A model generated the notes under the pieces. That model was given only the letters and a program-made list of their open reading frames with translations. It ran no database searches and was not told where the DNA came from. From positions 130,087 through 194,086 of the forward strand of contig JAWKHU010000038.1 in the NCBI GenBank assembly GCA_041394685.1: 64,000 nt of DNA, in the 5' to 3' direction. Numbering within the stretch: the stretch's first letter is position 1; each line of letters starts with the position of its first letter. This DNA comes from Vicinamibacterales bacterium. GTDB lineage: Bacteria > Acidobacteriota > Vicinamibacteria > Vicinamibacterales > UBA2999. Positions 5,607 through 56,216 of the stretch are shown in pieces. The position numbers were made by a program, and so were the translations under genes.

Positions 5607-7457
5607 CTACCGCACGGCCGTTCCGGCGCCCTGCTGCAGGGTCGTATAGGCGCCTTCGCGCAGCCCCGTCCAACGCTCCGTCTCACCCGACGGCCACCGC
5701 ACCCGCACCTCGCGCACACCCGACGATTCCAGGCCCGCGAGCACGCGCGGGTCGTGCGCGGACAGGTAGCCGCCATCCGTGTGCACGCGACGCCGCAGGG
5801 CGCGCCCGTCCGAGCGCACGACGATGACCTCCGCTCCGAGCATGTCGCGGGCGGGCGTCCGTCCGGCCAGCCGCAGGCCCACCCAGCGGGACTGGCCTGG
5901 GGTGTCGTTGCGCAGCACCCGCGCCGGGCCGTTGCTGTTGAGCAGCACGATGTCGGTGTCGCCGTCGTTGTCGAGGTCGCCGAGCGCCATGCCGCGGCTC
6001 ACCTCCGCCACGCGGAACGCCGGGCCGGCCTCAGCGGACGCGTCACGAAAGCGGCCGCCCGTGTGGATGAAGAGCTGAGTGGGCTGCGCGAGCGGATAGG
6101 GATCGCGCGGGTCGGTGGTGAGGCGCAGCACGGCGCCGTTGGCGGCCACCAGGTCGAGCCACCCGTCGTTGTTCACATCGGCCCACAATGTCCCGAAGCC
6201 GGTGTAGCGCGTGCCGAGCCCAAGCCCGGCCTCCCGCGTCCGATCCTCGAACACCGTCTTGCCGAGGTTCACGTACAGCGTGTTGGTCTCGTCCATCAGG
6301 TGCGTGAGGAAGATGTCGGGCCGGCCGTCGCCATTGAAATCCCCGGAGTCCACGCCCATGCCGGCTTCCGCCTGCCCGTCCCGGTTGAGGGCCGTGCCGC
6401 TCAGCAGTGCCGCGTTCTCGAACGTGCCGTCGTGACGGTTCATCCAGAGCTGGTTCTCGTAGCCGTCGTTGGCCACGTAGAGGTCCAGCCAGCCATCGCC
6501 GTCGAAGTCGTCGGCCACCACGCCGAGGCCGGCGCCGAACGCGCGCGCGATGCCGGCCGACGCCGTGACGTCCTGAAAGGTCCCATCACCCTTGTTGCGA
6601 TAGAGGATGTCGGGCACCGGCGGAAAGGACTTCGGGCCGCAGTAGTCGCGGGCGCTCGTGGCGGCGTAGCAGGCAGGCGGTCGCGCGAGATCCACCTCGA
6701 CATAGTTGGTGACGAACAGGTCGAGCCAGCCGTCGCGGTCGTAGTCCACGAACGACGCGCTCGTGCCCCAGCGCCGATCGCCCGTCCCCGAACGCGCGGT
6801 GGCGTCCTCGAAGCGGCCGCCGCCACGGTTCATCCACAACTGGTTGGCGCCAAGGTTGGTGATGGCAGGTCCACGCGGCCGTCGTTGTCCACGTCGCCGG
6901 CGGCCACTCCCATCCCGTAGCCACGCGCCTCGATCCCGCTCGCCGCGGTCACGTCAGTGAAGGTCAGGCGGGCCGACCCAGGCGCGAGGTCGTTGCGGTA
7001 GAGCCGTCCGGACGGCGGCTGCGCGCCGGTCCACGGCGTCAGCGTCTTCGCCGCATCGTCGGACGGCCGCAAGGTCGTGCCCTGCACGAGGAAGAGATCG
7101 AGATCGCCGTCGTTGTCGAAGTCGAACAGCGCGGCGCCGGAGCCGACTATCTCGGGATAGAGGTAGTCGCCGGTGAGGCCGTTGTAGTGACGGAAACGGA
7201 TGCCGGCCGCAGAGGTGATGTCGGTAAAGGTGGCGGGGGCCGCAGATGGCGCAGATGACACAGAGGCCGCAGATTGCGCGGAACTCGCAGAAGCCGCAGA
7301 TGGCGCAGATGACGCAGAGGCCGCAGATTGCGCGGATGACACAGGGGACGCAGATGGCGCAGATGGCGCGAATGAGGCGAAGGGGTGGAGGGTGCGAGGG
7401 GGCCACGCCCGAAACGGCGAGCACGAGGGCGACGATTGGGAGGGGAGGGCGGTGCAT
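5607..7457 (-). CDS. CRTAC1-family FG-GAP/VCBS repeat protein with ASPIC/UnbV C-terminal domain (frame breaks near 6850 and near 7385-7420)
   Basis: Repeats include FDFDNDGDLDLF, GDVDNDGRVDL, VDYDRDGWLDLFVTNY, DDFDGDGWLDLYVANDG, GDFNGDGRPDIF and GDLDNDGDTDIV. The C-terminus is ...GAEVIVV..GGYLSAHDPRV..VRVRWPSG. The gene is split over ORFs 5607..6839 and 6830..7342. The signal peptide MHRPPLPIVALVLAVSG (ATG at 7457) is in a third frame. Confidence 0.75.
7242..7385. repeat. Tandem 9-mer array, 16 units (GCAGATGGC/GCAGATGAC/GCAGAGGCC family) with a 54-bp higher-order period
   Basis: Read directly: gcagatggc gcagatgac acagaggcc gcagattgc gcggaactc gcagaagcc, repeated, then decaying (gcgaatgag gcgaagggg). 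On the minus strand it translates as a Ser/Ala linker between the signal peptide and the mature CRTAC1 domain. Confidence 0.9.
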
Positions 7458-7497
7458 CGTGAGGCGGGACGCGTGCCGGGTGGTCCGGCGCGTCGCG

Positions 7498-8208
7498 TTA
7501 CGGTGGCGGGGGCCGGCGCGGCGGGGCGGCGCGGCCGTCCGGGGGTTCGTTTGACGGGGGCGGCGCGGGGCTGGGCGCGGTGGATGGCACACCGGGGCGT
7601 GCGCCTTCGGGGCGACCGTTGCTCAGGCTTTCGGGGCGGGGTTCGGACGACGCGGCCGACGGCGTGCGGTCGGCGGGCGTGGCGCCGCCATCACGACCGT
7701 TCGCACGATTCTCCTTGTCTTCCGCAGAATCGGCGGCGGCGTCTGGCAGGTTGGTGACGAGGCTGTCTGGTTCGAACGCAGCATTCTCCGCGGCACCGAC
7801 GATCCGCTCGAGTACGGACGCCGGCGTCGTGCCCGCCGGCACGTCACCCTTGGCCAGCACCAGGATCAGATCGATATCCGATGCGCCGCCGGCGCCCGAG
7901 CGCCGGCGGGCGACGTAGCCGGCCGCGTCGCCGAAGATGGCGGCCAGCGCTTCGGCTTCGGGGACGGCGTGCAGCCGCATCGACAGGGTGCGTGCGCCCA
8001 GCAGGTCGGCATTGATCACGGTGGTGCCGCCGGCGCGGGACCATTCCTGCAGCACGCGCGTCGCCGGGATGTCGTCGGCCACCAGTGTCACGCGGCCGGC
8101 GTCGAACGACACGGCGAGCTGGCGGGCGTCGGCGCCCATCGACCATCCGGCCAGGATCGCCAGGGCAAACCCCACCAGTCGCCACGCCGGCGTGCTGCGC
8201 CGCTTCAT
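7498..8208 (-). CDS. Hypothetical secreted protein with Pro-rich C-terminal tail
   Basis: Likely start is MKRRSTPAWRLVGFALAILAGWSMGADA (signal peptide). A structured N-domain is followed by a low-complexity P/S/A tail. GC3-rich codon usage. No family recognised. Confidence 0.5.
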   Translation of the reverse strand: MKRRSTPAWRLVGFALAILAGWSMGADARQLAVSFDAGRVTLVADDIPATRVLQEWSRAGGTTVINADLLGARTLSMRLHAVPEAEALAAIFGDAAGYVARRRSGAGGASDIDLILVLAKGDVPAGTTPASVLERIVGAAENAAFEPDSLVTNLPDAAADSAEDKENRANGRDGGATPADRTPSAASSEPRPESLSNGRPEGARPGVPSTAPSPAPPPSNEPPDGRAAPPRRPPPP

Positions 8209-8224
8209 CCCGACGATTGTACCG

Positions 8225-15325: not shown

Positions 15326-16746
15326 TCAGCGCACCATGCGGCGGATGACGCCGTCGCCCTTGTTGATCATGAGGATCTGATCGTCGAGCGCCGCGTTCAG
15401 CCGCAGGTCGGCGCGCGTGGCTGGCGTCTTGCCCTGCGCCGCGTTGGTCTCCTGAATCACCTGCAGGAACGTCCGGTCGCCGGCAGGCGTGCGCACGAGG
15501 ACGCGCCGAATGGGATCCTGGCCGCCTTCGGGCAAGTCGTCGGCGCTCACGTAGAACATCTCGCCGCTCGGGTTGTCGGTGAAGAGGACGCGGTTGGCGA
15601 CCTGCGGAATGGCCGTCCCGCGGTAGATCACCAGGCCGCATGCCGCCGACTGCGGCTGCAGCAGAGGGTCGAGCTGCCCGTACTCCGCGAACGGGAACGT
15701 CACCGCCGGATCGCCGCGGCGTCCCTCGGCCTCCACCGCCTGCCGGCCGACGAACTGTACGAGCCCTCCCAGACGTTCCAACCGAGGTTGCCGCCCTTCG
15801 GCACCAGCGTCACCTTCTCGACGATGTTCTGGCCGATGTCGGCGAGGAAGAGGTTTCGCGTCTTCGCGTCCCACGCGAAGCGCTGGCGTTGCGGATGCCG
15901 TAGGCATAGATTTCGGGAGGGCCCCGGCGCGGGCGACGAAGGGATTGTCCGACGGGATGCCGCACTGCGTCGCATGCCCGTTGGTCCCGAGCGGGTCGAT
16001 GCGGAACATCTTGCCGAACGCCGAGCCGAGGTTCTGCGCCATGTTGAACGGATCGCCGCCACTGCCGCCGTCGGCGATGGTGATGAGTAGGAGGCCCGCC
16101 TCGGTGCTTCCCGCCGCGGCCGTGGGATCGAACGCGAGGTGGCCGGCGTTGTGGTTGGCGAAGGGCTGCCGGATGCGGAAGAGCACGCGCGGCGGTCCGC
16201 CGTCGTAGGTGGCCGCGGACGGATCCTTCGCCGTCCACTCGAGGAGGACCGTGTCGTGGGTGGGCTTGTCGCCGCCGGCAGGCAGGAAGTCCGGTTCCGG
16301 CGTCATGTTCGACGTGTCGGTGAACGTGTAGAACCTGCCGTAGCCCGGAGCGCCGGCGCGCCCGAACTGCGGATGGAACGTGAAGCTCTGGAACCCGCGT
16401 TCGCGACCCGACGATTGCACGGGATGCCCCCACGCAGACGCGTTGGTGTCCACATATAGCGCCACCGAGGCGCCGTCGTAGCTGACGCTGTAGAGCGGTC
16501 CGCGCATGTCGTTGACGAAGAGGCGCCGGGTCGTAGTCTCGTCCACCAGGTTCATCATGCGCGCCGCGACACCGTCGATGTCGGGCAGCCGGGCGAACTC
16601 CGACACGCCGACGCGAATGACGTCCCGATCGGTCGCGATCGGTCCGGGGAACGGATCGTTGGTCTGCCCTGGCGCAGCGTGCCGGGCGCACGGACGAACG
16701 CGGCGGCGAGGAGCGCGGACAGGAGCCGGGTGAGTGCGATGGGCAT
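15326..16746 (-). pseudogene. PQQ-dependent sugar (glucose/sorbosone) dehydrogenase, secreted; four frame breaks as sequenced
   Basis: The signal peptide MPIALTRLLSALLAAAFVRA is in ORF 16555..16746. The body is in 15326..17077 (NDMRGPLYSV, FHPQF, RIRQPFANHNAGHLAFDP, ADGGSGGDPFNMAQN). The central part is in two other frames (EIYAYGIRNA; RFAWDAKTRNLFLADIGQNIVEKVTLVPKGGNLGWNVWEG). Confidence 0.7.
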
Positions 16747-16761
16747 GGGGGAGTTTAGTCT

Positions 16762-16844
16762 GGGGCGTGGGGCGGGGGCGTGGGGCGTGGGGCGTGGGAC
16801 CTGGGGCTTGGGGCTTGGGGCTTGGGGCTTGGGGCCTGGGACTT
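16762..16844 (+). repeat. Tandem G-rich 7-mer array (GGGGCGT then GGGGCTT), 12 G-tracts
   Basis: Read directly: GGGGCGT GGGGC GGGGGCGT GGGGCGT GGGGCGT GGGACCT GGGGCTT x4 GGGGCCT GGGACTT. It lies in the 161-bp divergent spacer between the dehydrogenase start (16746, minus) and the propeller-gene start (16908, plus). Confidence 0.9.
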
Positions 16845-16907: not shown

Positions 16908-19889
16908 ATGTCTTGCCTTCTCCGGCGCCTGGCCGGCATCGTCTGGATGCTGGCGCTCGTTCCCCACCCGGCCCTCGCGCAGTACGCCGAGACCGCGCGA
17001 ACGCTGCCGGTCGCCGACGGGCTCGTGTACACCGGCACCCAGATCGGGTCGCGCCTCTTCATCGGCGGGACGTTCACGCACGTCGCGCCGCCAACCGGCG
17101 GCGCCGCGGTGTTCGACGACGCCGATCAGCCCGTTCCGGGTAACTGGCCCGTCATCGGCGGCACCATCTCGCGCATCATCCCGGACACACTCGGCGGGTG
17201 GGTGGCCGTGGGTTCGTTCACCACGGTGAACGGGCAGCCGCACGCGGGGCTCGTGCACGTGACGGGCGCCGGCGAGGTGGACCCGCGGTTCCGCATCGTG
17301 GCCGATGGAGGCATCTCGTCCGTGGCGCTGGCGCACGGACGCCTCTACCTTGCCGGGCCCTTCACCACCGTGAACGGCGCTCCGCGCCGCGGCCTGGCCG
17401 CGCTCGACGCCTCGTCGGGTGCGCTGTTGGCGTGGGGACAGGCCTTCCAGGCCTTCGACATCAGCTTCGTCGCCGCGCTGGTGACCTCGTCCACCGGCGT
17501 CTACGTGAGCCTGACGGGTGCGCCGGGCGGCGGAACCTGGGGGCTCGCGGCCAGTGACGGCCACGTGCTCTTCCACCTGCCCATCATCTACGGGGCCCTT
17601 GCGCCCACCTCGACGCGTCTCTACGCCGCCGGCTACGTCCCCGCCGTGCAGCAGAATCGCGTCGTCGTCCTCGATCCGCAGACGGGCGCCGTCGATCCCT
17701 CGTGGGTGTCGCCCGTCCGGTTCCAGACCATCAGTACTACCAGCGGCGACCGCACGTTCTTCTCCCGCATGATCCTCGACGGCGACACGCTCTACGTGGC
17801 GGGGGCGTTTCGGACCGCCGGGGCGAGCCGGCAACACCTGATGGCGCTGAGCGCGTCGAGCGGCGCGCTGCTGCCCTGGCAGCCGGACGCCGCGTTCAAT
17901 CCGAGCAACGGGGTGCGCGACATCGTCCTGCTGCCGTCGCAGGTCATCGCCGTACACGAGAGCATCGGGTTCCCGGGACCGCTGCACGACGTCACGACAT
18001 TCGATCGGGTGAGCGCCGCCGCGACCCCTCGGCTCCTGCCCGTCTTCGGCAACGTCGCCACCGTCGCCCCGGTGGCCGCCGGAGTCGTGGTCGGCGGCAG
18101 CTTCGGCGGGTTCGGCGGAGAGGCGCGCGCCCAGCTCGCGGCCATCGACCTGGACACCGGCCTGCTCGACGCGTGGGCCCAACCGGCCGGCTCGCCGGCC
18201 AGCGTGATCGTGCTCGCCACGGATGGCGCCGCGCTCTTCGCGTGCCGCGTCCGGGACGTGGGCGGCCTGCCGCAGCCGACGATCGACAAGCTCGATGCCG
18301 ACGACGGCCACGTCGTGGCATCGCTCGACCTCGGTGGGCCGCTGGCGACGGCGCTGCTGCAGATGCGGGCCGCGGGCGGCCGCCTCTACGTCTGGGGGCT
18401 CTTCGACAGCCTGGGCGGACAGAGCCGCACCGGGCTGGCGGCCATCGACATCGCGACGTGGACGGTCCTGCCCTGGGCGCCCGCCACGGACAACCGGGTC
18501 TTCGATCTCGACGTGGTGGGCAACACCGTCTACCTGGCAGGCCACTTCTCCACCATCGACGCCACGCCGCGGCCGGGCCTGGCCGCGATCGACGCAACGA
18601 CCGGCGCGCTCCTGCCGTGGAACCCCGACGCCGACACGGCGCGGTTCTCCGGCGTTCGCGTCCGTGCCGGCCGTGTCCTCGTGAGCGGGGACTTCCGCCG
18701 AATCTCGGCCGTGCGCCGACGAGGGTTTGCCGCGCTGGACCCGGTGACGGCGGACGCCGACGCGTGGAATCCCGACTCGCCACCAGGATTCCCACAGGGG
18801 ATCAACGGCTTCGCGCTGGATGCCGCAGGCATCCTCTACGCGATGGGCGGGTTCTCCACGATCGTCGGCGGTCAACCCTCGGTCGGGCTCTTCGCCCTGT
18901 CGTCCGAGACCGGCCTCCGGCTGCCATGGCAGCCGCCCGGTCCCCTCTCGCTGAGCCGCGCGTCGGCGCTCCCGAGCTGTCTGCTTCTCGTCAGCGTCTC
19001 CCGGGTCGAGACGCCAATCCTGAACAGCTACGCCTGCCTGCCACCGCTGCCGCCGCCCACGAACGTATCCGCCAGCCTCTCGGGCGCGACGGCAACGCTG
19101 TCGTGGACGCCACCAGCGGCGGATGTGACCGGGTACCGCATCGAGGTCGGGCGCGGCGCCGGGCAGCGCGACCTGGCCACCGTGGCCGTGGATGCGGGCA
19201 CGACATCCGCATCGGGCTCCCTGCCGGCCGGTTCGTACGTCGCACGCATCCGCGCGGTGCACGGCGAGGTCGCCAGCATGCCCTCACCCGACGTGAGCTT
19301 CGCGGTCGCGCCGCCGGATGTACCGGGCATCCCGCTGGATCTCTCCGTGGCCACCGAGGGTCAGCGCGTGCGGTTCTCGTGGCGCCCGCCGACGGTCGGC
19401 ACGCCCGCCGGGTACCTCCTGGAAGTCGGCGTGGCTCCGGGCCGCGCGGACTTCGCGTCGCTCACGCTCCCGCCGACGTCCACGTTCGAGGTGCCCACCG
19501 CACCAACCGGCATCTACTGGGCGCGTCTCCGCGCGATCAACGCAGCCGGCGCCAGCGGGCCGTCGAACGAAGTCGTGATCAACGTCGACGGCAGCGCCGC
19601 GCCCTGCTCGCTACCCCCACTCGCACCCGCCGGCCTGGCGGCCAGTGTCACCGCGCGCGTCGTCACCCTCACCTGGATACCGGCCACGACGGGCGCCGTC
19701 TCCAACGCGCAGCGCATCGTTGTCGGGTCGGCCTCGGGACTGGACAATCTCGGCGTGTTCGAAGTGGCGGGTCCGGCCACGACGTTCAGCGCACCGGCGC
19801 CGCCGGGCACGCACTTCGTTCGCGTCTACGGGTTCAACGCGTGCGGCGCAAGCCCGTTCAGCAACGAAGTGCAGGTGGTCGTCCCGTGA
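16908..19889 (+). CDS. Secreted beta-propeller repeat protein (DUF5122/delta-60-like repeats) with three C-terminal FN3 domains
   Basis: Intact ORF with likely start MSCLLRRLAGIVWMLALVPHPALAQ after a TGGAGG RBS. About 12 repeats of the pattern G.V.ALA..G.LY.GG.F..V.G..R.GLAA.D..TGALL.W. Three FN3 modules have the W..P...Y..EVG...G and G.Y.ARIRA.N..G.S.PS..V signatures. Confidence 0.8.
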   Translation: MSCLLRRLAGIVWMLALVPHPALAQYAETARTLPVADGLVYTGTQIGSRLFIGGTFTHVAPPTGGAAVFDDADQPVPGNWPVIGGTISRIIPDTLGGWVAVGSFTTVNGQPHAGLVHVTGAGEVDPRFRIVADGGISSVALAHGRLYLAGPFTTVNGAPRRGLAALDASSGALLAWGQAFQAFDISFVAALVTSSTGVYVSLTGAPGGGTWGLAASDGHVLFHLPIIYGALAPTSTRLYAAGYVPAVQQNRVVVLDPQTGAVDPSWVSPVRFQTISTTSGDRTFFSRMILDGDTLYVAGAFRTAGASRQHLMALSASSGALLPWQPDAAFNPSNGVRDIVLLPSQVIAVHESIGFPGPLHDVTTFDRVSAAATPRLLPVFGNVATVAPVAAGVVVGGSFGGFGGEARAQLAAIDLDTGLLDAWAQPAGSPASVIVLATDGAALFACRVRDVGGLPQPTIDKLDADDGHVVASLDLGGPLATALLQMRAAGGRLYVWGLFDSLGGQSRTGLAAIDIATWTVLPWAPATDNRVFDLDVVGNTVYLAGHFSTIDATPRPGLAAIDATTGALLPWNPDADTARFSGVRVRAGRVLVSGDFRRISAVRRRGFAALDPVTADADAWNPDSPPGFPQGINGFALDAAGILYAMGGFSTIVGGQPSVGLFALSSETGLRLPWQPPGPLSLSRASALPSCLLLVSVSRVETPILNSYACLPPLPPPTNVSASLSGATATLSWTPPAADVTGYRIEVGRGAGQRDLATVAVDAGTTSASGSLPAGSYVARIRAVHGEVASMPSPDVSFAVAPPDVPGIPLDLSVATEGQRVRFSWRPPTVGTPAGYLLEVGVAPGRADFASLTLPPTSTFEVPTAPTGIYWARLRAINAAGASGPSNEVVINVDGSAAPCSLPPLAPAGLAASVTARVVTLTWIPATTGAVSNAQRIVVGSASGLDNLGVFEVAGPATTFSAPAPPGTHFVRVYGFNACGASPFSNEVQVVVP

Positions 19890-20020
19890 CACGAAGGGCA
19901 CGAAGGGGAGAACACGAAGGGGGGCACGGAGGACACGAAGAGCACGAAGGGGACGAAGGGCACGGAGGGCACGGAGAGCACAGGGGGCGCGGAGGGCGCG
20001 GAGGGCTCGAGGGGATCGAG
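19890..20020 (+). repeat. Tandem purine-rich 9-mer array (CACGAAGGG family), about 14 units, decaying 3'-ward
   Basis: It starts on the nucleotide after the TGA stop (19887..19889): cacgaaggg cacgaaggg ... cacggagga cacgaagag cacgaaggg gacgaaggg cacggaggg cacggagag cacaggggg cgcggaggg cgcggaggg ctcgagggg atcgagcgt. Confidence 0.9.
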
Positions 20021-20040: not shown

Positions 20041-20367
20041 CTACGGGGCGGGGGCGATGGAGTCTACGACGAGCGTGGCGCCCGAGGCGTCCAGCGAACC
20101 TGTGACCACGACGCGGACGCCCGCGTAGGCGGCGGGGGCGTCCTGGTCGGAGAGTTGGTACACCCGGTCATCCGTCACCAGGACGTACGCGGCGTCGTGC
20201 TCGTCGTGACAGGCTTTCGTGCAGGCGGCATCGGTCGGGCCCATGCGCATGCCCGCGTGCGAGGTCTCGCACATGGCGTCGGAGATGATCCCCGTGAAGG
20301 TCCGCGACTGGACCGGGGCGGCTCCGAGGGAACACAGGGCGACGATACCGACGAGCGCAACTCTCAT
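20041..20367 (-). CDS. Small secreted Cys/His-containing protein, function unknown
   Basis: Likely start is MRVALVGIVALCSLGAAPVQS (signal peptide). The mature part is FTGIISDAMCETSHAGMRMGPTDAACTKACHDEHDAAYVLV.... Confidence 0.5.
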   Translation of the reverse strand: MRVALVGIVALCSLGAAPVQSRTFTGIISDAMCETSHAGMRMGPTDAACTKACHDEHDAAYVLVTDDRVYQLSDQDAPAAYAGVRVVVTGSLDASGATLVVDSIAPAP

Positions 20368-34698: not shown

Positions 34699-36624
34699 TC
34701 AGAAGACGTCCACGCGCATGTCGGCCGTCGCCGGACCGATGCCCGCCACGTTCATCGCCCGCACGCGCACGTAGTAGGTGCCCGGAGGCGCGTTGGCGGC
34801 CACCAGCGACTCCTGCGGCGTCATCATCGTGCCCACGTCCGTGAGACCGATCTGCGATCCCACCTCGACGATGTAGTTGTCAACGGGACCGCCGGCCGAT
34901 GGTGCCTGCCACGCAAGCGTGACGGTGCGGCCCGTCAGCAGGTGTGTGAGGCCGTCGGGCGCGCCCGGCGGGGCCACGCTGGTGGACAGGGTGACGGCGA
35001 CGTCGTTGGAGGGCGCACCGGTACCGCAGGCGTTGAGCCCGCGCACGCGCAGGTAATAGGTCCCCGGAGGGCCCGTCGCCACCAGCGCCGGCAGGCCACC
35101 GATGTTGCGGCGGCCGTGCTCGACGCCGCCCGGCGTGGCTCCCACTTCGAGCAGGTAGGCAGTGGCTCCAGGCGCGGCGCCCAGTGCGAGCGACATCTGC
35201 AGGCCGTCCACCGTGGCCGCCAGCGGTCCGGGCGCCTGCGGCTCCGACATGCACCCGGTAGCGCCCAGCGTCACCAGCAGCTCGCTCGATGGCGGGCCGA
35301 GCCCGTATGCGTTTCGTCCCCGCACGCGCACGTAGTAGGTGCCGGCCGGCGCGTCGGCGTCGAAGGTGGTCGCCGCTCCCGCCGTGGCCTGGACCAGCAG
35401 GTTGCTTGCTCCAGCCACCGACCCCGCCTCGATGATGTAGTCGGCCGGAAGGCCGCCGGTGGTCGGCGGCAGCCACGACAGCCGCACGCGGAACGTCGTT
35501 GCGGTTGGCGAGTCGCCCATGCGGGCGATGCGCCCCTGCGCAGGCTGGAGCTGGTCGAACCCGAACGTGCGAATCGCGAAGCCCCAGGCCGCGTCTGCAC
35601 CAGGCGCGGTCACCGCCGCATCGCCTTGCTGACCCGCGACGGCATAGGACAACAGGAGGGGCGCACCGGGCACGCGCGAGAAGGTGGGTGACGGCGTCGG
35701 CGTAGGTATTGGAGTCGCCGACGGCGTCGGCGTCGGTACGGGAGTCGCCGACGGCGTCGGTGTCGGCACCGGGCTGGCCGATGGCGTCGGTGTCGGCACC
35801 GGACTCGCCGATGGCGTCGGCGTCGGCACCGGACTCGCCGATGGCGTCGGCGTCGGCACCGGACTCGCCGATGGCGTGGGGGTCGGCACCGGACTCGCGG
35901 AGGGCGTCGGTGTAGGCACCGGGCTCGCTGACGGCGTCGGCGTCGGCGTGACGTCGAAGTGATTGAACACGAGCGCGGGGCCCGCCTGCCCACCGTTCTC
36001 GCGGGAGGCCAGGAACATGCCGCCGTCGCCGCTGGTGGTCGTCCGGCGGATCCGGAACGTCGTGGCGCCGCCGTTGACCAGGGCGGTGACGTCGAAGCTC
36101 AGCTCTCCCGGGCCGGTGTAGCCGCCCTCGGCGCCCGGGGGCGTCCCGGCCGCCGTGTTGTTGAAGGTCGCGTCTCCCTCCGTCTGCGTCGTCGAACACG
36201 CTTCGGCCGTGATTGTCTCGAACGTGGGCGTGAAGTCGATGACCACCTGCGTCACCAGCGTGACCTCGTCGGCCGGGCCGTAGGTGGACAGCAGGGTCGA
36301 GACGGCGGTGGGGTCGAAGATCACCAGCGCATCGGCGCTGTCGGCGCCCTGCACCTCCACCGTCAGCTGCCCGTCGGTGCCGAAGTTGGTATCGGGCTGG
36401 TCCGACCGCAGCGTGGTGTCGCCGGCCACGTCGATCTGCCGCAGGACGGCGTGCGCGGCCGTCACGCCGAAGAGCGGCCCCAGGGCCGCACCGCCGACGA
36501 TGCGACTGAGGTAGCTGACGCCGCCAGAGGCGGTGAAGCCGGTGCCGCCGACGAGCCGCTGCACGAAGCCGCGACGGGACAGCGGATAGCGAGGCCGGGG
36601 ATCGCCGGGGCCGGATGTCTCCAT
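34699..36624 (-). CDS. Tat-exported DNRLRE-domain protein with Pro/Thr/Ser decapeptide linker and three FN3 domains
   Basis: Intact 641 aa. Twin-arginine motif is [17 protein letters not shown]-like motif is [21 protein letters not shown]. There are nine [10 protein letters not shown] repeats. Three FN3 modules carry [13 protein letters not shown] signatures. Confidence 0.8.
35683..35949 (-). repeat. In-frame 30-bp tandem repeat x9 encoding (TPTPSA[ST]P[VI]P)n linker
   Basis: Read directly. Several units differ only by synonymous changes (gcgagt versus gccagc for Ala-Ser) while the peptide stays identical. Confidence 0.9.
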
Positions 36625-37312: not shown

Positions 37313-38194
37313 AGCTGCGGCTCGGCATTCCCAAGGGCTCGCTCGAGCAGGCCACCGTCCAGCTCTTCCAGCGGGCGGGCTTCCAGGTGCTGGTCTCGTC
37401 GCGCTCCTACTTCCCCTCCATCGACGACCCCGAGATCGAGTGCATGCTGATCCGCGCGCAGGAGATGGCCCGCTACGTGGCCGACGGCATCCTCGACGCG
37501 GGCCTCACCGGCTTCGACTGGATTCGCGAGCACGAGATCGGCCACCCCGAGCAACCACCGCTGGTGCCGTCGCCGACCTCATCTACTCGAAACAGAGCTT
37601 CGGCAAGGTGCGCTGGGTGCTGGCCGCGCCGGAGGCTCCCCGTTCCAGACGGCAAAGGACTTCGAGGGCAAGCGCATCGCGACCGAGCTGGTGCGCGTGA
37701 CACGCGACTACTTCCAGCGCCACGGCGTGAACGTGGACGTCGAGTTCTCGTGGGGCGCCACCGAGGTCAAGCCGCCCGTGCTGGCCGACGCCATCGTCGA
37801 GGCCACCGAAACCGGGTCCACCCTGCGGGCCAACCGGCTCCGCATCCTGGACACGATCCTGGAGTCCAACACCCAGCTGATTGCCAACGACACAGCCATG
37901 GCCGACGACTGGAAGCGGACGAAGATCGAGAACCTCGCACTGCTGCTCAAGGCCGCGATAGAGGCACAGGGCCGCGTGGGGCTGATGCTCAACGTGCCGA
38001 AGGCGAGCCTCGACGAGGTGCTGGGCCTGCTGCCCGCCCTGCAGCGGCCCACGGTGAGCGCGCTCAGCGACCCCGAGTGGGTGGCCGTCAACACCATCCT
38101 GGAAGAGAAGACCGCGCGCGACCTGATCCCCAAGCTGAAGGCCGCCGGCGGACAAGGCATCGTGGAGTATCCGCTGACGAAGATCGTCATGTAG
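37309..38194 (+). CDS. hisG: ATP phosphoribosyltransferase, long form (two single-base frame breaks near 37540 and 37640)
   Basis: The protein is [20 protein letters not shown]...[15 protein letters not shown], then [22 protein letters not shown], then [25 protein letters not shown]...GLMLNVPK...EYPLTKIVM. The length of 886 nt equals 888 minus 2. Confidence 0.8.
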
Positions 38195-38250
38195 GAATTC
38201 AGAAGTCAGAATTCAGAATTCAGAAGTCAGAACGGAGAAGGCGGAGCACA
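38195..38250 (+). repeat. Tandem 7-mer array filling the hisG-hisD spacer (GAATTCA/GAAGTCA family, 8 units)
   Basis: GAATTCA GAAGTCA GAATTCA GAATTCA GAAGTCA GAACGGA GAAGGCG GAGCACA, running from the base after the hisG TAG to the A of the hisD ATG. The decayed 3' units supply the hisD RBS (GGAGAAGG). Confidence 0.9.
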
Positions 38251-41197: not shown

Positions 41198-41829
41198 TTG
41201 CACTGGTCGACTACGGCGCCGGCAACCTTACCTCGGTGCGCAAGGCGCTCGGCGCCATCGGTGCGTCGTTCTGGACGCCCGCGGCGCCGTCGGAGATTGC
41301 CGATGCGGCAGCGGTGGTCGTACCCGGGGTCGGGCACTTCAGCGCCACAGCGGCGCTGGACGAACCGTGGCGCGACGCGATTCGACGCGCACTTGCCGGC
41401 GGACGCCCGCTGCTCGGCATCTGCGTCGGCCTGCAGTGGCTGTTCGACGGCTCCACCGAGGCGCCAGACGTCCCCGGTCTTGGCGTGGTCGCGGGCACGT
41501 GCCGCCACCTGGGCGACCGGGACCCGGACGCGCGGACGGATGCCGGCGCCGACGGACTGAAGATTCCGCACGTCGGCTGGAACGACCTCACGTTCCCTCG
41601 CCCCACGCGCCTGTTCGACGGCCTCGCCGATGGCACGCAGGTGTACTTCACGCACTCGTTCGCGGCGCCCGTGGTGGCCGCGACCGCGGCCGTCACCACT
41701 TACGGCGTCGCGTTCAGCGCCGCCGTCGAGGACGGCCTGGTGTCCGGCGTGCAGTTCCACCCCGAGAAGTCCGGCGACGCGGGGCTTCGCATCCTGCGCA
41801 ACTGGGCCGCTGATACGGGCCGCAGATGA
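41194..41829 (+). CDS. hisH: Imidazole glycerol phosphate synthase, glutamine amidotransferase subunit
   Basis: The GTG start overlaps the hisB stop (GTGA). Motifs are [33 protein letters not shown] and VQFHPEKSG. The stop TGA (41827..41829) lies inside the first repeat unit. Confidence 0.85.
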
Positions 41830-42149
41830 CGCAGATAGCGCAGATGGCGCAGGGGCCGCAGATGACGCAGATGGCGCAGGGGCCGCAGATGGCGCAGATG
41901 ACGCAGAGGAGGCAGAGGAGGCAGAGGCGGCAGAGGCGGCAGAGGAACCTCGGGAGGGGACTCGAGGCGGCCAGGACCTCTCTGTCGGCTCCACATGCAT
42001 TGATGACGATGACGCCTACGCCCTCACCCTCTGGTCTTGATCCGTGGCATCCGTGGCATTCGCGCCCTCTGCGCTATCTGCGTCATCTGCGGCCTCCGCG
42101 CCCTCTGCGGCCTCTGTGCCATCTGCGGCCTCTGCGCCATCTGCGGCTC
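41822..42149. repeat. Inverted-arm tandem 9-mer element filling the hisH-hisF spacer (14 units, ~92-nt core, 12 inverted units)
   Basis: The left arm at 41822..41947 is GCAGATGAC GCAGATAGC GCAGATGGC GCAGGGGCC ... GCAGAGGCG GCAGAGGAA. The right arm at 42042..42149 is CCGTGGCAT CCGTGGCAT TCGCGCCCT CTGCGCTAT CTGCGTCAT CTGCGGCCT ... CTGCGCCAT CTGCGGCTC, the reverse-complement family. It is the same family as 7242..7385. Confidence 0.9.
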
Positions 42150-42163
42150 CAGGGATCGCGCTG

Positions 42164-42928
42164 ATGCTGTCCAAGCGCATCATTGCCTGTCTCGACGTCC
42201 GCGACGGTCTCGTCGTCAAGGGCATCAACTTCGAGGGGCTCCGCGAGGCGGGCGATCCGGCTGCCCTCGCGCGACGCTACAACGTCGAGGGCATCGACGA
42301 GATCGTGATCCTCGACGTGACGGCCACCATCGAGGCCCGCCAGGCGCGGGCGCACACCATTGCGGCCGTCGCTGGGGAGATCTTCCTGCCGCTCTGTGTC
42401 GGCGGCGGCATCCGCACCGAAGACGACGCCGCGGCGGCGGTCGAGGCGGGGGCCGACAAGGTGAGCCTCAATACTGCGGCGCTGCAGAACCCGGCGCTGA
42501 TCACGACGCTGGCGCGGCGCTACGGCAGCCAGGCGGTCATCGTCGCCGTGGACGCCAAGCGCCAGGACGGCCGGTTTGCCGTCTACGCGCGGAGCGGACA
42601 GGCCGAGACGCCGAAGGACGCCGTGGACTGGGCGCGGGAGGCGACCGATCGCGGCGCCGGAGAGATTCTGCTGACCTCGATCGACAAGGACGGTACGCGC
42701 AGCGGGTTCGACTGCGAGATGACGGCGGCGGTGTCGTCGGCGGTCAACATCCCGGTCATCGCCTCCGGCGGCGCCGGCAGCTTCGCGCACTTCGCCGAGG
42801 TGTTCACCGACGGCCGCGCGGACGCGGCGCTGGCGGCGTCCATCTTCCACTTCAACGAGCACAGCGTCGAGGCACTGAAGCAGTTCCTCCACGCGCGCCA
42901 CATCCCCGTACGGTTGCCCCCATGCTGA
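42164..42928 (+). CDS. hisF: Imidazole glycerol phosphate synthase, cyclase subunit
   Basis: MLSKRIIACLDVRDGLVVKGINFEGLREAGDP..., motifs GGGIRT and ASGGAG. The ORF-track start at 42044 is read-through of the repeat. Confidence 0.9.
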   Translation: MLSKRIIACLDVRDGLVVKGINFEGLREAGDPAALARRYNVEGIDEIVILDVTATIEARQARAHTIAAVAGEIFLPLCVGGGIRTEDDAAAAVEAGADKVSLNTAALQNPALITTLARRYGSQAVIVAVDAKRQDGRFAVYARSGQAETPKDAVDWAREATDRGAGEILLTSIDKDGTRSGFDCEMTAAVSSAVNIPVIASGGAGSFAHFAEVFTDGRADAALAASIFHFNEHSVEALKQFLHARHIPVRLPPC

Positions 42929-43644
42929 TTCCGTCCATCGACCTCCAGAACGGCCGCGTCGTGCAGCTCGTGCAGGGCGAGACGCTGGCCATTGCGAGCG
43001 ATGACATCGATGCCTGGATCGCGAAGTTCTCGCGCTTCCCGAAGGTGCAGCTCATCGATCTCGACGCCGCGATGTCCCGCGGCAACAACGATGCACTCGT
43101 GCGGCGGATCGCGGCCGTCCTGCCCTGCCGCGTCGGCGGCGGCGTGCGCACGGTGGGCCGCGCCGAGGAACTGCTGGCGGCGGGCGCGCAGGCGGTCATT
43201 GCCGGGTCGGGCCTCTTCCGCGGACCGGGCCAGTGGGGCGATGCGTCCGGCGGGGCGCCGCCGCCTGCCGCGGTGGTCAACCACGAGTTCGCCGAGGCGC
43301 TCGCCACCACCGTGGGTGCCGATCGCGTGATCGCCGCGGTGGACGCGCGCGGCGGCCGCGTGGTCATTCATGGGTGGAAGACGGCGCTTCCATTGAGCCC
43401 GGTGGACGCGGTGCAGCTACTGGACCGCCACTGCGGCGAGTTCCTCTACACGCACGTGGACAAGGAAGGGCTGATGCAGGGCACCGACATGGACGCCATC
43501 CGCGCGGTGCGCGACGCGACGAGCCGCCGCGTCACCGCGGCCGGGGGCATCACCACGCAGGAGGAAATCGCCGCCCTCGACGCCCTCGGCGTCGACGCGG
43601 TCGTCGGGATGGCGATCTATACGGGCACATTGGCGGTCGATTGA
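42922..43644 (+). CDS. hisA: HisA-type ProFAR isomerase (HisA/HisF family TIM barrel)
   Basis: The start overlaps the hisF end. Sequence is MLIPSIDLQNGRVVQLVQGE, then LIDLDAA, GGGVRT, YTHVDKEGLMQG and AAGGITT. 240 aa. Confidence 0.8.
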   Translation: MLIPSIDLQNGRVVQLVQGETLAIASDDIDAWIAKFSRFPKVQLIDLDAAMSRGNNDALVRRIAAVLPCRVGGGVRTVGRAEELLAAGAQAVIAGSGLFRGPGQWGDASGGAPPPAAVVNHEFAEALATTVGADRVIAAVDARGGRVVIHGWKTALPLSPVDAVQLLDRHCGEFLYTHVDKEGLMQGTDMDAIRAVRDATSRRVTAAGGITTQEEIAALDALGVDAVVGMAIYTGTLAVD

Positions 43645-43646
43645 CT

Positions 43647-43681
43647 TTCTTAATTCTGAATTCTGAATTCTGAATTCAGAA
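43647..43681. repeat. Tandem 7-mer array, inverse orientation (TTCTGAA family, 5 units) ending in a 14-bp perfect palindrome
   Basis: TTCTTAA TTCTGAA TTCTGAA TTCTGAA TTCAGAA, starting 2 nt after the hisA TGA. The palindrome TTCTGAATTCAGAA is at 43668..43681. It lies between convergent genes. Confidence 0.9.
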
Positions 43682-44250
43682 GCGCCCCTGACCGCCTCGC
43701 TGAGCGTATCGAGCAGCACCTGATCGCGGGCTTCGGCACGGTCACCGGGCTGCGCGCCCCACGTTTCGTCCAGCGCCGTCATGGTCCTCGCGACGCATCC
43801 CGCGTCGCAGGGCGCCAGCCCCCGCTGCGTGCTGAGCGAAGAGGCCCGGGCGGAAAGGGCGGCGAACCAACGGTCGAACAGCGACGTCTCGTATTCGGCG
43901 GAGCGGTTGCCCGGCTCCCACTTCAGGAGCCGATCCATGGCCTGGACGACCTGCGGGTCCACGGGCTTGCGCTTGCTGAGCGTGACCGAGAACACGGTCG
44001 TCGGCTGGCCGGTGAACGGCGAGTTGGGCGCGCCGCCGCCGACCTGGGTGTCCACGGGCGCCTCGACGCGCTGCTTGACGTCCTCGAGCAGCGGGATGAT
44101 GGCGCGCGCGGCGTCGGTACGTGCAGCCAGCGTTGCGGTATCCACCTCGATCGGCGTCGGTTGCTGGGCCCGGGCGCGGGTGGCCAGGGGCGCTGCTGCC
44201 AGGGCGATGAACGCCGCGATCGTGATGGTCGAGACGGATGGCTGCCTCAT
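43655..44250 (-). CDS. Hypothetical secreted protein (3' end uncertain)
   Basis: The start is MRQPSVSTITIAAFIALAAAPLATRARAQQ (signal peptide). The ORF formally runs to 43417 through the 7-mer array and 228 nt antisense into hisA, which looks non-coding. The true stop is probably at or just after the repeat. Confidence 0.45.
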
Positions 44251-44342
44251 GCGTGAGCTCCTGACTTCCACTACACCATGATTTGGCAGGCCGGGGAAGA
44301 GAGACGGATCGAGGAGACGAGGCCCGCGGGTAGAATCCGCGG

Positions 44343-45089
44343 GTGGCCGTCGGCTACCGCCCGCTCCTGCAGACACAGCGCGACCTCTACGCCCTTCCGC
44401 GAGACCTGTCGCGGTTCCGCGCCTACCTTGCCACGCTGCGCGATGAGGCGACCGGCGAGATGGCGCTCCCGCTGTCGGCGATGAACCCCATGGGCAAGGA
44501 CCACGTGCCCGCGCTGCTGGACGCGTATCTCGCGCTCGGGGCCGACGACATCGGCGCCCGCGCCGCCGCGGAGGCCGGCGCTGTATCCGCCAGCGAACCC
44601 GGAGCGGTGGAGGCCACCCTGGTCGTCTCCGACGACCTGCACGGCGGCTGGACGAATCGGTGGGCCAGCGAGTTCGGCCATCGATTCGAGTGCCAGGCCA
44701 TGATCACGCGCGGATGGGCAGTGGGCATCCTGTGGACGTCCGAGCCGGCATCGGCCGACGCGGCCCGTCGGGCGGTGCTGACCGCCATCCACCGGTTCGC
44801 CTACGTCCGCGCCCACGGGACGCCGACGACGCTGCGGGACATGCTCGCGCAGGAGGGCCACGTGATGGCACTCGGAGAGGACGCCACTCCCCGTCTCGAC
44901 GCCGAGGACCTGGCCTACACACGCGAGGTGATTGGCCCCCACCTCGACGCCACGGATCGCGCCACGCAGATGGCGTGCTGCTTCGGCGACGCCTGCGCCC
45001 GCGCACTGGGTTACGACCCCATGGGGCTGTCGGACCGCGCGGGCTTCGCGCTGGCCCTGGCCGACTACGCCGCGGTCCGATCGCGATAG
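44343..45089 (+). CDS. Conserved-looking hypothetical protein
   Basis: Intact 248-aa ORF with GC3-rich codon usage and a balanced composition. No family recognised. Confidence 0.55.
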   Translation: MAVGYRPLLQTQRDLYALPRDLSRFRAYLATLRDEATGEMALPLSAMNPMGKDHVPALLDAYLALGADDIGARAAAEAGAVSASEPGAVEATLVVSDDLHGGWTNRWASEFGHRFECQAMITRGWAVGILWTSEPASADAARRAVLTAIHRFAYVRAHGTPTTLRDMLAQEGHVMALGEDATPRLDAEDLAYTREVIGPHLDATDRATQMACCFGDACARALGYDPMGLSDRAGFALALADYAAVRSR

Positions 45090-50833: not shown

Positions 50834-50855
50834 GGCGCCCGCATAGAATGCGGCC

Positions 50856-51338: not shown

Positions 51339-51377
51339 CGGGCGCCACGAGCGGCGCGGGAGAAGGACGCCGCCGGC

Positions 51378-51608: not shown

Positions 51609-51881
51609 CGGTAGCGGTCCTACCAGCTTAGAGCGAGCATCGTGCCAAATGGTTGGGAGCGGCCCAACGCGCTCTGCCACAACGGCTTAGCGGATTTCTG
51701 GTCAGTCGCAGGCGCACGGCCAATGTCCGTTTCCGGGACTGTGCCGTCTGGCCCGGGGCAGGTCCCGCCGGCCGGGTGGACATCCAGAAAGCCCCCGCCC
51801 GCGATGTCGAGAAGCGCCCGGCGGCTCCGACTCCACCACACACACCCCGAGCGGACAGCTCGGGCATTCCAGGAGACCCCG

Positions 51882-53545: not shown

Positions 53546-53637
53546 TGGCGCTGGACAGCCACGCGCTTCTCGCCAGAGACTAGTCGGTGCGCGCCACTCA
53601 CGGTGCCGCACCAATGGCCCTCTCAGCGGAGACACCC

Positions 53638-54516: not shown

Positions 54517-54564
54517 GACCGAACGAGTACGCGCCACGGCGCATTCATCAACGGAGTCCCTGCT

Positions 54565-55101: not shown

Positions 55102-55122
55102 CGCGCGGTCGAACCACGGCGA

Positions 55123-55144
55123 GCCGGGACGTCCTTGTCCCGGC
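55123..55144 (+). terminator. GC hairpin after sodC (no U-tract; weak terminator candidate)
   Basis: GCCGGGAC-gtcctt-GTCCCGGC, 22 nt downstream of the sodC stop. Confidence 0.3.
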
Positions 55145-55223
55145 CGCCAACTCCCTACCCAGAGCAAAGCCGGCTCGGAACCCGTATTCGACACGGGACT
55201 TGACGTCAGGGAACTGCAGGCTG

Positions 55224-55261
55224 TATTGTCGCGTATAGCTAATTAGCCGGTCGCGACAATA
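55224..55261 (+). promoter_or_regulatory. Nested palindromes abutting the ArsR-family gene start: candidate autoregulatory operator
   Basis: TATTGTCGCG (55224..55233) and CGCGACAATA (55252..55261) form a perfect 10-bp inverted repeat. They flank an inner palindrome GCTAATTAGC. The region is an AT-rich island ending 1 nt before the ATG at 55263. Confidence 0.6.
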
Positions 55262-55262
55262 C

Positions 55263-55610
55263 ATGACAGACCAACTGAGCCTGACCTTCGCCGCGCTTGC
55301 CGATCCCACCCGGCGCGGCATCCTCGCCCGCCTGGCGGACGGCGACGCCACCGTGAACGAGCTCGCCGAGCCCTTCGACCTCACGCTCCCCACCGTGTCC
55401 AAGCACCTCAAGGTGCTGCAACGGGCCGGACTGGTGACGCAGACGCGCAAGGCCCAGTGGCGGCCCTGCCACCTGGAGCCGGCCCCGCTCAAGGACGTGG
55501 CCGACTGGGTGGACCGCTACCGCCGCATGTGGGACAGCCGCTTCGAACAGCTCGACGCCTTCCTCGTCGAGCTCGCACGAAAGGAGACCAACGATGAACG
55601 CCAGCGCTAG
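55263..55610 (+). CDS. ArsR/SmtB-family transcriptional regulator
   Basis: FAALADPTRRGILARLADGDATVNELAEPFDLTLPTVSKHLKVLQRAGLV is a winged helix-turn-helix. Confidence 0.85.
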   Translation: MTDQLSLTFAALADPTRRGILARLADGDATVNELAEPFDLTLPTVSKHLKVLQRAGLVTQTRKAQWRPCHLEPAPLKDVADWVDRYRRMWDSRFEQLDAFLVELARKETNDERQR

Positions 55611-56115
55611 TCAGCAGAGCGATACGCGCCACGTGGGCGCGATGTCCATCAGGGTGCGGTCCGACCTCGAGATCGAGATGCGCCGCACGTTTGCCTTCCC
55701 CCGCCGCCTCGTCTTCGAGGCGCACAGCAAGCCGGAGTACATCAGTCGCTGGTGGGGACCGCGCGGCAGCGAACTCATCAGCTGCGACATGGACTTTCGC
55801 CCGGGCGGCGCGTGGCGCTTCGTGGTCGGGAAGCCCGGCGGGCAGCAGTACGCGTTCCGCGGCGAGTACAAGGAAGTCGTCCCGCCCGAGCGCCTCGTCT
55901 ACACCTTCGAGTTCGAGGGCATGCCCGGATCGATCACCGTGGACGCGATCACCTTCACCGAGCACGAGGGGCACACCACGCTCACCTGCGTCAGCCGGAT
56001 GGACTCGATCGAAGCCCGCGACGCCATGCTGGCCTCCGGCATGGAGAAAGGCGCGGCCGAAACCTACGACCGGCTGGAGGAAATGCTCGGGGGGATCTCG
56101 GGGAATTCAGAATGA
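55594..56115 (+). CDS. SRPBCC / Aha1-domain protein
   Basis: It overlaps the arsR-like gene by 17 nt. Sequence pieces are FAFPRRLVFEAHSKPEYISRWWGP, GGAWRFV and YKEVVPPERLVYTFEFEG. Confidence 0.8.
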   Translation: MNASASQQSDTRHVGAMSIRVRSDLEIEMRRTFAFPRRLVFEAHSKPEYISRWWGPRGSELISCDMDFRPGGAWRFVVGKPGGQQYAFRGEYKEVVPPERLVYTFEFEGMPGSITVDAITFTEHEGHTTLTCVSRMDSIEARDAMLASGMEKGAAETYDRLEEMLGGISGNSE

Positions 56116-56216
56116 AGAAGTCAGAATTCAGAAGGGCCGTTGGCCGACCTCGGCTTTGTGCCTTTTGCCTTCTGCCTTCTTGATTTCGGCATTCTGCATT
56201 CTGAATTCTGAATTCC
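56103..56216. repeat. Inverted-arm tandem 7-mer element (GAATTCA/GAAGTCA family)
   Basis: The left arm is GAATTCA GAATGAA GAAGTCA GAATTCA GAAGG (56103..56135) and contains the SRPBCC stop codon. After a ~25-nt core comes the right arm CCTTTTG CCTTCTG CCTTCTT GATTTCG GCATTCT GCATTCT GAATTCT GAATTCC (56161..56216). The outer ends GGGAATTC...GAATTCCC are complementary. Confidence 0.9.

Follow-up and report, generated by a model that had tools for sequence, protein, structure and literature searches.

The question raised by this locus is why arrays of very short tandem units recur at the ends of unrelated genes. The stretch analysed, referred to here as the window, comprises 64,000 nucleotides of a Vicinamibacterales (Acidobacteriota) genome (GenBank assembly GCA_041394685.1, contig JAWKHU010000038.1, positions 130,087 to 194,086) and carries seven loci of head-to-tail heptamers or nonamers, which an initial annotation had attributed to one underlying repeat-generating or repeat-using process. 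The arrays are real and spacer-confined. A few unit families make them up, and the same families turn up at unrelated spacers, in the genomes of relatives, in further phyla and in contigs classed as viral. The arrays abut or overlap gene ends, and where two of them face each other, the strand rich in purines or G runs inward, 5'->3', from either side. The seven loci are not independent accidents, and three of the four rules proposed for them hold. They are probably intergenic heptamer/nonamer long simple-sequence repeats (LSSR) of a kind described before, now found in Vicinamibacterales.

Tandem repeats were located with Tandem Repeats Finder (TRF), the window count being the rows of period 7 or 9 with a score of at least 50. 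Eight such rows lie in the window, compared with none in 29 of 30 dinucleotide shuffles and one in the remaining shuffle (about 0.03 per shuffle). TRF and the sequences themselves place all seven loci where they had been annotated, as follows.

7238-7369, plus strand: array 1, about 14 nonamers of the GCAGATGGC family (TRF and unit table).
16761-16840, plus strand: array 2, 11.6 heptamers, GGGGCGT five times and then GGGGCTT six times (TRF and sequence).
19890-20014, plus strand: array 3, about 14 nonamers of the CACGAAGGG family with a purine fraction of 0.79 (TRF and sequence).
38195-38239, plus strand: array 4, 5.4 heptamers, GAATTCA/GAAGTCA (TRF and sequence).
41821-41946, plus strand: array 5 left arm (5L), 14 nonamers with a period of 27 (TRF, sequence and unit table).
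41947-42039, no strand: locus 5 core, 93 nt of non-repetitive sequence between the arms.
42040-42147, minus strand: array 5 right arm (5R), 12 nonamers (TRF and sequence).
43645-43681, minus strand: array 6, 5 heptamers, TTCTGAA on the plus and GAATTCA on the minus strand (TRF and sequence).
56101-56137, plus strand: array 7 left arm (7L), units GAATTCA, GAATGAA, GAAGTCA, GAATTCA and GAAGGGC (sequence).
56154-56217, minus strand: array 7 right side (7R), inner TGCCTTY heptamers at 56154-56190 and outer ATTCTGA heptamers at 56185-56217 (TRF).
37.4-43.6 kb: the hisI-G-D-C-B-H-F-A operon.

The units of 7 or 9 bp show the strand asymmetry that had been reported for them, with a purine fraction of 0.64-0.79 on the purine-rich strand. 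Also as reported, five of the seven loci are tied to a stop codon: arrays 3, 4 and 6 start 0-2 nt past one, and arrays 5 and 7 contain one. Array 3 begins 0 nt past the TGA (19887-19889) of an fn3/beta-propeller gene (16908-19889), in a convergent gap with a DUF5818 gene (20041-20367, minus strand). Array 4 fills the hisG-hisD spacer, from 0 nt past the TAG (38192-38194) up to the hisD ribosome-binding site (ATG 38250). At locus 5 the hisH stop (TGA 41827-41829) lies inside the first unit of the left arm, whose GCAGATGRC units shift to GGCAGAGGA nearer the core; the right arm comprises two inner ATCCGTGGC units and a remainder of GYCATCTGC, the reverse complement of the left arm, and stops 16 nt short of the hisF ATG (42164; hisF 42164-42928). 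Array 6 fills a convergent gap, starting 0-2 nt past the hisA stop (TGA 43642-43644). The minus-strand gene convergent with hisA (about 43684-44250; window open reading frame (ORF) 43417-44376) has lost its stop codon and reads through array 6; its homologues in relatives (L121, L123 and L124; loci and contigs compared are given by L numbers) end ...EAVRARK*, and the window copy is about 88 residues longer, antisense to hisA. In array 7 a variant second unit of the left arm creates the TGA (56113-56115) that is the stop of an AHSA1-like gene (Pfam AHSA1); the outer ATTCTGA heptamers of the right side pair with this arm, and the right side ends 16 nt short of a DinB-like gene (ATG 56234).

The exceptions to stop adjacency are array 1, inside a coding region, and array 2, in a divergent gap upstream of a start codon. 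Array 1 lies within a minus-strand CRTAC1/ASPIC-like coding region (Pfam FG-GAP_3, UnbV_ASPIC), between the signal peptide and the first FG-GAP domain, and translated in the FG-GAP frame it gives a Ser/Ala-rich linker. Array 2 is located 14 nt upstream of a minus-strand GSDH-like ATG (16746-16744) and 67 nt before the start of a plus-strand gene at 16908; judged by its sequence, it could form a G-quadruplex.

The monotonic decay of units away from one end, part of the initial description, is not what the arrays display. Agreement with the unit oscillates along array 1 with a 27/54-bp period (matches per unit, in order: 9, 8, 6, 8, 5, 7, 9, 8, 7, 8, 7, 5, 9, 9), and array 5L switches unit type; a single degenerate unit is present only in the short heptamer arrays, at the inner end in arrays 4 and 7L and at the hisA-side end in array 6. 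In the window's long nonamer arrays a 27-nt module of three units is strung together head to tail, each block opening CC-GCAGAT. Array 1 consists of 27-nt modules that each open (G)CC-GCAGAT and has a higher-order period of 54 bp, its TRF match being 71% at period 9, 80% at 27 and 89% at 54. In metagenomes the nonamer family mostly takes the form of a short arm, TCC-GCAGATGAC-GCAGATGRC-GCAGAT, with non-unit bases on its outer flank (C in 90% at position -1 and in 70% at position -2). In many cases an inverted copy faces this short arm, with 20-100 nt of unrelated sequence in between; both single three-unit arms and 3+3 nonamer pairs are seen among the metagenome copies. L126 and L152 are likewise module concatemers, with periods of 39-42. 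The proposal of one shared process stands as regards common rules, recurring families and a fixed polarity of pairs, and does not stand as regards monotonic decay or an undescribed class of element.

The polarity of pairs was counted for opposite-strand arrays within 600-800 nt of each other, inward being (purine-rich unit)n - core - (complement)n. An inward arrangement is unchanged by reverse-complementing the contig, and the bias is therefore intrinsic. The counts are as follows.

GAAKTCA, genome loci and window: inward to outward 16:1.
GAAKTCA, viral contigs: inward to outward 7:0.
GCAGATGGC, metagenome loci and window: inward to outward 12:0.
GCAGATGGC, viral contigs: inward to outward 2:0.
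Geobacter metallireducens, published pairs (Fig. S5, PMC2700814): 8 of 8 inward.

Pooled over three collections, the sequence scans place the purine-rich strand inward 37:1. For other unit families, paired under a permissive criterion, the left arm has G>C in a ratio of 44:11 and purine>pyrimidine in a ratio of 44:13. Polarity is kept even where the arms belong to different families (hisH-hisF of L245), and is thus independent of complementarity. Among 129 single GAAKTCA arrays, 29 follow the end of a long sense ORF versus 16 in the opposite orientation, with 3% at random positions. A crude skew test of 27 Vicinamibacterales spacers, taking 30 nt at each end, found the sequence ahead of a start codon or a convergent gene end to be pyrimidine-rich 18:7, and that behind a stop to be purine-rich only 15:11. 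Avoidance of Rho as a cause of the polarity was set aside, as the cyanobacterial loci L036, L078 and L107 share it; cyanobacteria are generally held to be without Rho. Supply of stop codons was rejected as a cause of orientation, GAAKTCA having no stop in any frame on the gene-following strand.

The array-core-inverted array construction described for two loci is present at both, and these are the loci with long predicted hairpins. At locus 5 the arms of about 99 nt are 77% complementary, with an RNA minimum free energy (MFE) of -216 kcal/mol (z = -10.8); at locus 7 the 33-nt arms (56101-56133 and 56185-56217) are 82% complementary, with an MFE of -49.9 kcal/mol (z = -4.0). A search for palindromes inside single arms of arrays 1, 3 and 4 found none. 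The cores of pairs are unrelated, even in one metagenome-assembled genome (MAG; L102 compared with L112). Inverted pairs of different families are nested concentrically in the window (56101-56217) and in L112, L146 and L177: GAAGTCA arms are enclosed by CACAGAGAA arms in L112 (5271-5445), and GCAGATGAC arms by AAGAGCGG-type arms in L177. The inverted repeat reaches beyond the arrays in L146, L177 and L186. Target-site duplications were found neither at window loci 5 and 7 nor in the metagenome pair examples inspected.

Related genomes carry the same kind of array. Loci containing his genes were taken from relatives with 85-90% HisF identity (L121/L122, L123, L124 and L245-L249), and arrays of period 6-11 with at least 3 copies and a score of at least 40 were surveyed in 162 kb of about 70% GC Vicinamibacterales DNA (eight loci). 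Outside called coding sequence (CDS) lie 36 of the 38 arrays, CDS itself covering 82% of the 162 kb; period 7 (n=19) and period 9 (n=12) dominate among the arrays. An array is present in nearly every his spacer of the relatives, and the unit family at a given spacer differs between them.

hisG-hisD spacer: GAAKTCA in the window; CACGAAG pairs in L121 and L245; a CGCGGAG pair in L247; none in L249.
hisH-hisF spacer: a GCAGATGRC pair in the window; CTTCGTG-type arrays in L121 and L124; GGGGCGT facing CTTCGTGTT in L245.
hisF-hisA: overlapping genes in the window; spacers of 36-128 nt in relatives, with short-unit arrays in L121, L123, L124, L247 and L249 and a plain palindrome in L248.

The palindrome in the hisF-hisA spacer of L248 (8802-8897) is a near-perfect 24-nt pair (CCGGGCCTGGCACGGTTACATCAA ... 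TTGATGTAACCGTGCCAGGCCCGG) with no tandem array, and resembles a repetitive extragenic palindrome (REP).

Families that recur at non-orthologous spacers of the relatives are CACGAAGGG, GGGGCKT, GRAGTCA/CTCCTGA, GGGATC and GATTGGG. The family of array 2 is also found in L245 (7889-7926) and L247 (9581-9633), and that of array 3 in L121, L124, L245, L248 and L249. The last codons and the stop of the upstream gene are often supplied by the array, as in the HisH and HisA tails. The comparison of relatives for gain, loss and copy number that had been proposed yields a difference of unit family per spacer and no difference of copy number: L121 and L122 have none over 11 kb, a comparison that is uninformative because the two are 99.9% identical.

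It is hardly credible that the arrays are an assembly or sequencing artefact of a long-read MAG. The frameshifted window genes (CRTAC1-like, GSDH-like and DinB-like) suggest indel errors and would favour that explanation. Against it, an independent JGI contig (L250), 97.1% identical over 1044 nt without gaps, starts 33 nt upstream of hisF, inside array 5R, and so has the end of this arm. Independent ENA, NCBI, JGI and Logan assemblies of relatives show arrays in the same spacers, and short-read contigs of relatives break at array positions, those of L123, L124 and L250 ending at, or no more than about 75 nt from, the hisH-hisF or hisF-hisA arrays.

Beyond the lineage, a scan for (GAAKTCA)3.4 with one genome per species gave at least 120 loci. 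The matches listed fall in more than eight phyla (Cyanobacteriota, Acidobacteriota, Bacteroidota, Nitrospirota, Planctomycetota, Verrucomicrobiota, Desulfobacterota, Bacillota and others), and the GC content of the loci among these matches is 27-71%. When all tandem repeats in the listed GAAKTCA loci are considered, period 7 accounts for 300 arrays versus at most 32 for any other period, and about half belong to other unit families. A metagenome scan for (GCAGATGRC)2.4 also gave at least 120 loci. Complete scans of viral contigs returned 47 and 53 hits for the two families (GAAKTCA and GCAGATGRC), and controls of the same composition, with reversed or permuted units, returned 8, 8, 2 and 10. 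Arbitrary arrays exist, yet these two families are 5-25 times commoner in viral contigs than their scrambled controls.

Individual loci in these collections have further features. L032 (1075-1527, an Acidobacteriota MAG) contains a 450-bp compound array that passes from GAAGTCA to GAATCA and then AAATCA hexamers, with inverted CTTCTGA units at its close. In viral contigs L287 (3248-3947) and L295 (7610-8309) there are three like-oriented GAAKTCA arrays, 296-343 nt apart, unlike inverted pairs. Between GAAKTCA arms of L097 (6710-7156, a Bryobacteraceae MAG) is a PF05635 gene of the 23S-rRNA-IVS/Avd-like four-helix-bundle type (E = 7e-33), whose stop codon comes from the right arm, and a second such gene is likewise placed between GAAKTCA arms in L071 (6716-7012, a Bacteroidetes MAG). 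A link between the arrays and these genes was rejected, as they accompany only 2 of about 130 arrays and a third match (L108) is an ordinary Avd of a diversity-generating retroelement (DGR); it is kept as a lead only.

According to the reading that we favour, in which the arrays are LSSR of a described kind, a short module of about 27-35 nt would settle at a spacer boundary and be multiplied by slipped-strand mispairing or unequal recombination, at times in multi-unit blocks, until selection on the flanking genes halted its growth. Owing to the recurrence of families and the fixed polarity, we infer a directional filter or process that acts on top of neutral slippage. Single arms, when transcribed, would give structure-poor purine-rich tails, and paired arms would give long hairpins. 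By analogy with REP elements, the effect would most likely be a punctuation of transcripts and DNA at cistron boundaries, which may operate via 3'-end protection, RNase III-type processing or termination. Any such role would be generic and structural rather than gene-specific regulation, since one and the same spacer carries different unit families in different relatives.

Several points weigh against this interpretation. The recurrence of identical units in distant phyla is explained neither by slippage nor by selection for hairpins. A hairpin-based role is weakened by pairs whose arms complement each other poorly or come from different families (L245, L133 and L198). Single arrays show only a weak preference of orientation with respect to the upstream stop (15 versus 11; 29 versus 16). 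The L121/L122 pair, with no copy-number change over 11 kb, does not demonstrate ongoing slippage. The copy-number modes of 3 nonamers and 4-5 heptamers per arm are confounded by the search patterns, whose minima set them, and are not claimed as a property of the arrays.

Fixed pair polarity would also be in keeping with REPIN-type elements (REP doublets forming hairpins) or miniature inverted-repeat transposable elements (MITE), that is, non-autonomous mobile elements whose inverted arm pair is recognised by an enzyme encoded elsewhere (RAYT/HUH-like or another transposase), long arrays being secondary. We consider such an origin unlikely. It would accommodate the sharp outer terminus of the nonamer arm, where (A)TCC meets GCAGATG, together with the inverted repeat beyond the arrays in L146, L177 and L186, the nesting of pairs from different families (window locus 7, L112), and the occurrence of the families in viral contigs; the swapping of unit family at the same spacer between relatives is insertion-like rather than in-situ drift. 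However, neither window loci 5 and 7 nor the metagenome examples show target-site duplications, the cores are unrelated within one MAG (L102 and L112), the arms of one pair may differ systematically or by family, single arms are common, and the window has no transposase or HUH gene among the roughly 40 proteins scanned. Alternatively, and in our view also doubtfully, the arrays could be binding sites for a sequence-specific nucleic-acid-binding protein. This might be of the nucleoid or global-regulator kind that was proposed for Geobacter, or might bind single strands or RNA, a cold-shock-domain protein being one example. Three to five identical units in convergent pairs at variable spacing (as in PMC2700814), the 5-25-fold excess of specific families over scrambled arrays, and a period of 7 or 9, which is unlike the DNA helical repeat and fits a linear single-strand read-out, are all consistent with binding sites. 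The changes of family at orthologous spacers among close relatives make gene-specific regulation unlikely and would call for several binders per genome; in addition, at least one array (array 6) destroyed a stop codon.

Purely neutral replication slippage, with independent growth from chance proto-repeats and with shared rules that reflect only where such DNA is tolerated, would account for the existence of scrambled-unit arrays (2-10 viral hits), the many unrelated unit sequences, and the rapid turnover at orthologous spacers; heptamer dominance has itself been ascribed to polymerase slippage (Mrazek 2007, as cited in PMC4679880). It gives no reason to expect that particular 7- and 9-mers return at many loci and across many phyla, that they exceed composition-matched controls 5-25-fold, that the CC flank is conserved, or that pair polarity is 37:1 with 8 of 8 Geobacter pairs. 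It is already disfavoured by these polarity and family statistics, which come from small pattern-selected samples, and we regard it as improbable. A further idea, to which we give little weight, is that a dedicated activity and not accidental slippage writes the arrays, with an enzyme that would add or copy purine/G-rich units of 7-9 nt 5'->3' into the spacer from both boundaries. Candidate writers would be reiterative or templated synthesis on the 3' ends of breaks, similar to telomere fusion, or a hairpin-recognising system of HUH or RT/Avd type (RT, reverse transcriptase). Such an activity would explain inward polarity, non-complementary arms, nested pairs and displaced native gene ends, and would be compatible with the presence of the same units in different phyla and in viral contigs.

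Any mechanism, be it slippage, mobility, binding or RNA structure, must account for the inward purine-rich polarity. This testable rule is the most useful new handle on mechanism; also new are the extension of the phenomenon to Acidobacteriota, with heptamers that are not of the G-quadruplex (G4) type, the exclusion of G-quadruplex formation as a general explanation, and the demonstration that a short module, concatenated, makes up the long arrays. Few unexplained features are as common in large environmental bacterial genomes as dispersed arrays of heptamers and nonamers, and such arrays break short-read assemblies. Should a dedicated enzyme or binder be responsible, they would mark a widespread, unrecognised genome-shaping system; if there is none, they would be a tolerated mutational by-product still able to damage genes, as with the stop codon lost at 43.68 kb.

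The arrays are set in unremarkable surroundings. The GC content of the window is 68-75% along its full length, and its gene content, as seen in a Pfam scan of about 40 window proteins, is ordinary for a soil acidobacterium. Besides the his operon, the window encodes MacB/FtsX transporters, secreted peptidases, PhoD, FG-GAP/ASPIC and fn3 proteins, a sigma factor and a hybrid histidine kinase. In agreement with the initial annotation, which had seen no transposase nearby, the scan of these proteins found no transposase, and it found no reverse transcriptase or HUH enzyme. At the gathering score, no Rfam family matches anywhere in the 64-kb window. Three window genes change reading frame: the CRTAC1/ASPIC-like (5607-7457), GSDH-like (15326-16746) and DinB-like (56234-56700) genes. 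In two of them the break falls between the signal peptide and the mature part, and the frame changes suggest assembly indel errors rather than pseudogenes. A 30-bp unit repeated 8.6 times at 35690-35947 (TRF score 348, 89% match) lies inside a minus-strand fn3/CBM96/PPC gene (34702-36564) and, owing to this position, is a coding decapeptide repeat, separate from the intergenic arrays.

In comparison with known systems, the arrays belong to an already described, mechanistically unexplained kind of intergenic repeat. The statement that they represent no described class is at odds with the literature, in which LSSR, short tandemly repeated repetitive (STRR) sequences, TAACTGA and GGGNATC arrays, and the paired repeats of Geobacter are already published. 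They are distinct from CRISPR, as had been recognised: in place of repeats of 23-50 nt alternating with unique spacers of like length, the 7-9-nt units are directly adjacent, with no spacers. They are also distinct from MITE, as there is no target-site duplication at loci 5 and 7 or in the metagenome examples and the cores are unrelated in one MAG. With REP elements, bacterial interspersed mosaic elements (BIME) and REPIN they share an intergenic, non-coding, clustered position at gene 3' ends and fixed-polarity inverted doublets that fold into hairpins. The REP/BIME/REPIN group is characterised by imperfect palindromes of 20-40 nt, a conserved GTAG/CTAC end and a cognate RAYT gene, whereas the window arms are non-palindromic tandem 7-9-mers with long and unrelated loops. 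Identity with REP units was rejected, as the arms are direct repeats of 7-9 nt with no palindrome in the single arms of arrays 1, 3 and 4. No RAYT (Y1 HUH transposase) is among the roughly 40 window proteins scanned.

LSSR, as the work of Mrazek, Guo and Shah (2007) is summarised in later papers (PMC4679880, PMC4692102), have units of 5-11 bp, heptamers foremost, and are typical of large GC-rich free-living genomes. The window has head-to-tail repeats in the LSSR range of 1-11 bp far beyond chance (8 TRF rows versus about 0.03 per shuffle), and in the lineage survey they are enriched in non-coding GC-rich DNA with heptamers commonest (36 of 38 outside CDS; period 7 n=19, period 9 n=12). Cyanobacterial STRR heptamers (Mazel et al. 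1990, as described in PMC4679880) and the TAACTGA arrays that are common to Beggiatoaceae, Cyanobacteria and Bacteroidetes, with contigs ending in them (MacGregor 2015, PMC4679880), are further short tandem repeats of this type. LSSR, STRR and TAACTGA arrays resemble those of the window in their tandem units of 5-11 bp, heptamer dominance, intergenic position and use of one unit over many loci, and their phylogenetic distribution is patchy (Cyanobacteria, Bacteroidota). They differ in unit sequence, and their descriptions, to the extent that these sources give them, do not include Acidobacteriota, an inverted-pair architecture, polarity or module concatemers.

The G-rich heptamer arrays GGGNATC/GGGGAYT of Xanthomonas and Nostoc (Rehm et al. 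2015, PMC4692102) are dispersed and intergenic. Just past a stop their G-rich strand is the coding one, and immediately ahead of an ORF it is the non-coding one; close relatives differ at the same spacer in the number and sequence of units, and there is no link to mobile elements (PMC4692102). Arrays 2, 3, 4, 5L, 5R, 7L and 7R are placed in this way, as is array 6 with respect to the convergent gene only. This G4-capable type includes array 2 (GGGGCKT) and the GGGGATT arrays of L245; its published description has neither nonamers nor 27-nt modules. Four or more units that each contain a G-tract of at least 3 are found in array 2 and, in part, in array 3 (CACGAAGGG), and are not found in GAAKTCA or GCAGATGRC arrays. 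G-quadruplex formation was accordingly rejected as a general explanation: only arrays 2 and 3 are G-tract repeats, and the GAAKTCA and GCAGATGRC families are incapable of it.

The closest system is that of G. metallireducens, in which three to five tandem 7-9-mers form paired inverted sites of classes 1-3, for example in proB-proA (Aklujkar et al. 2009, PMC2700814). The class 3 consensus MTYCTGA, with units ATTCTGA, CTTCTGA and CTCCTGA (PMC2700814), is the reverse complement of the window's GAATTCA/GAAGTCA (arrays 4, 6 and 7). The authors guessed that the paired sites might bind the global regulators IHF/HU (PMC2700814). Window loci 5 and 7 have the same construction, with opposite-strand tandem 7-9-mers flanking a variable spacer. 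In both systems the inverted pairs are set at variable distance and also occur inside operons (proB-proA there, hisH-hisF here), and 8 of 8 published Geobacter pairs share the polarity of window locus 7. The window differs in belonging to another phylum, and adds to the Geobacter sites arrays of 11-14 units, single arms, G-rich heptamers and nonamer families.

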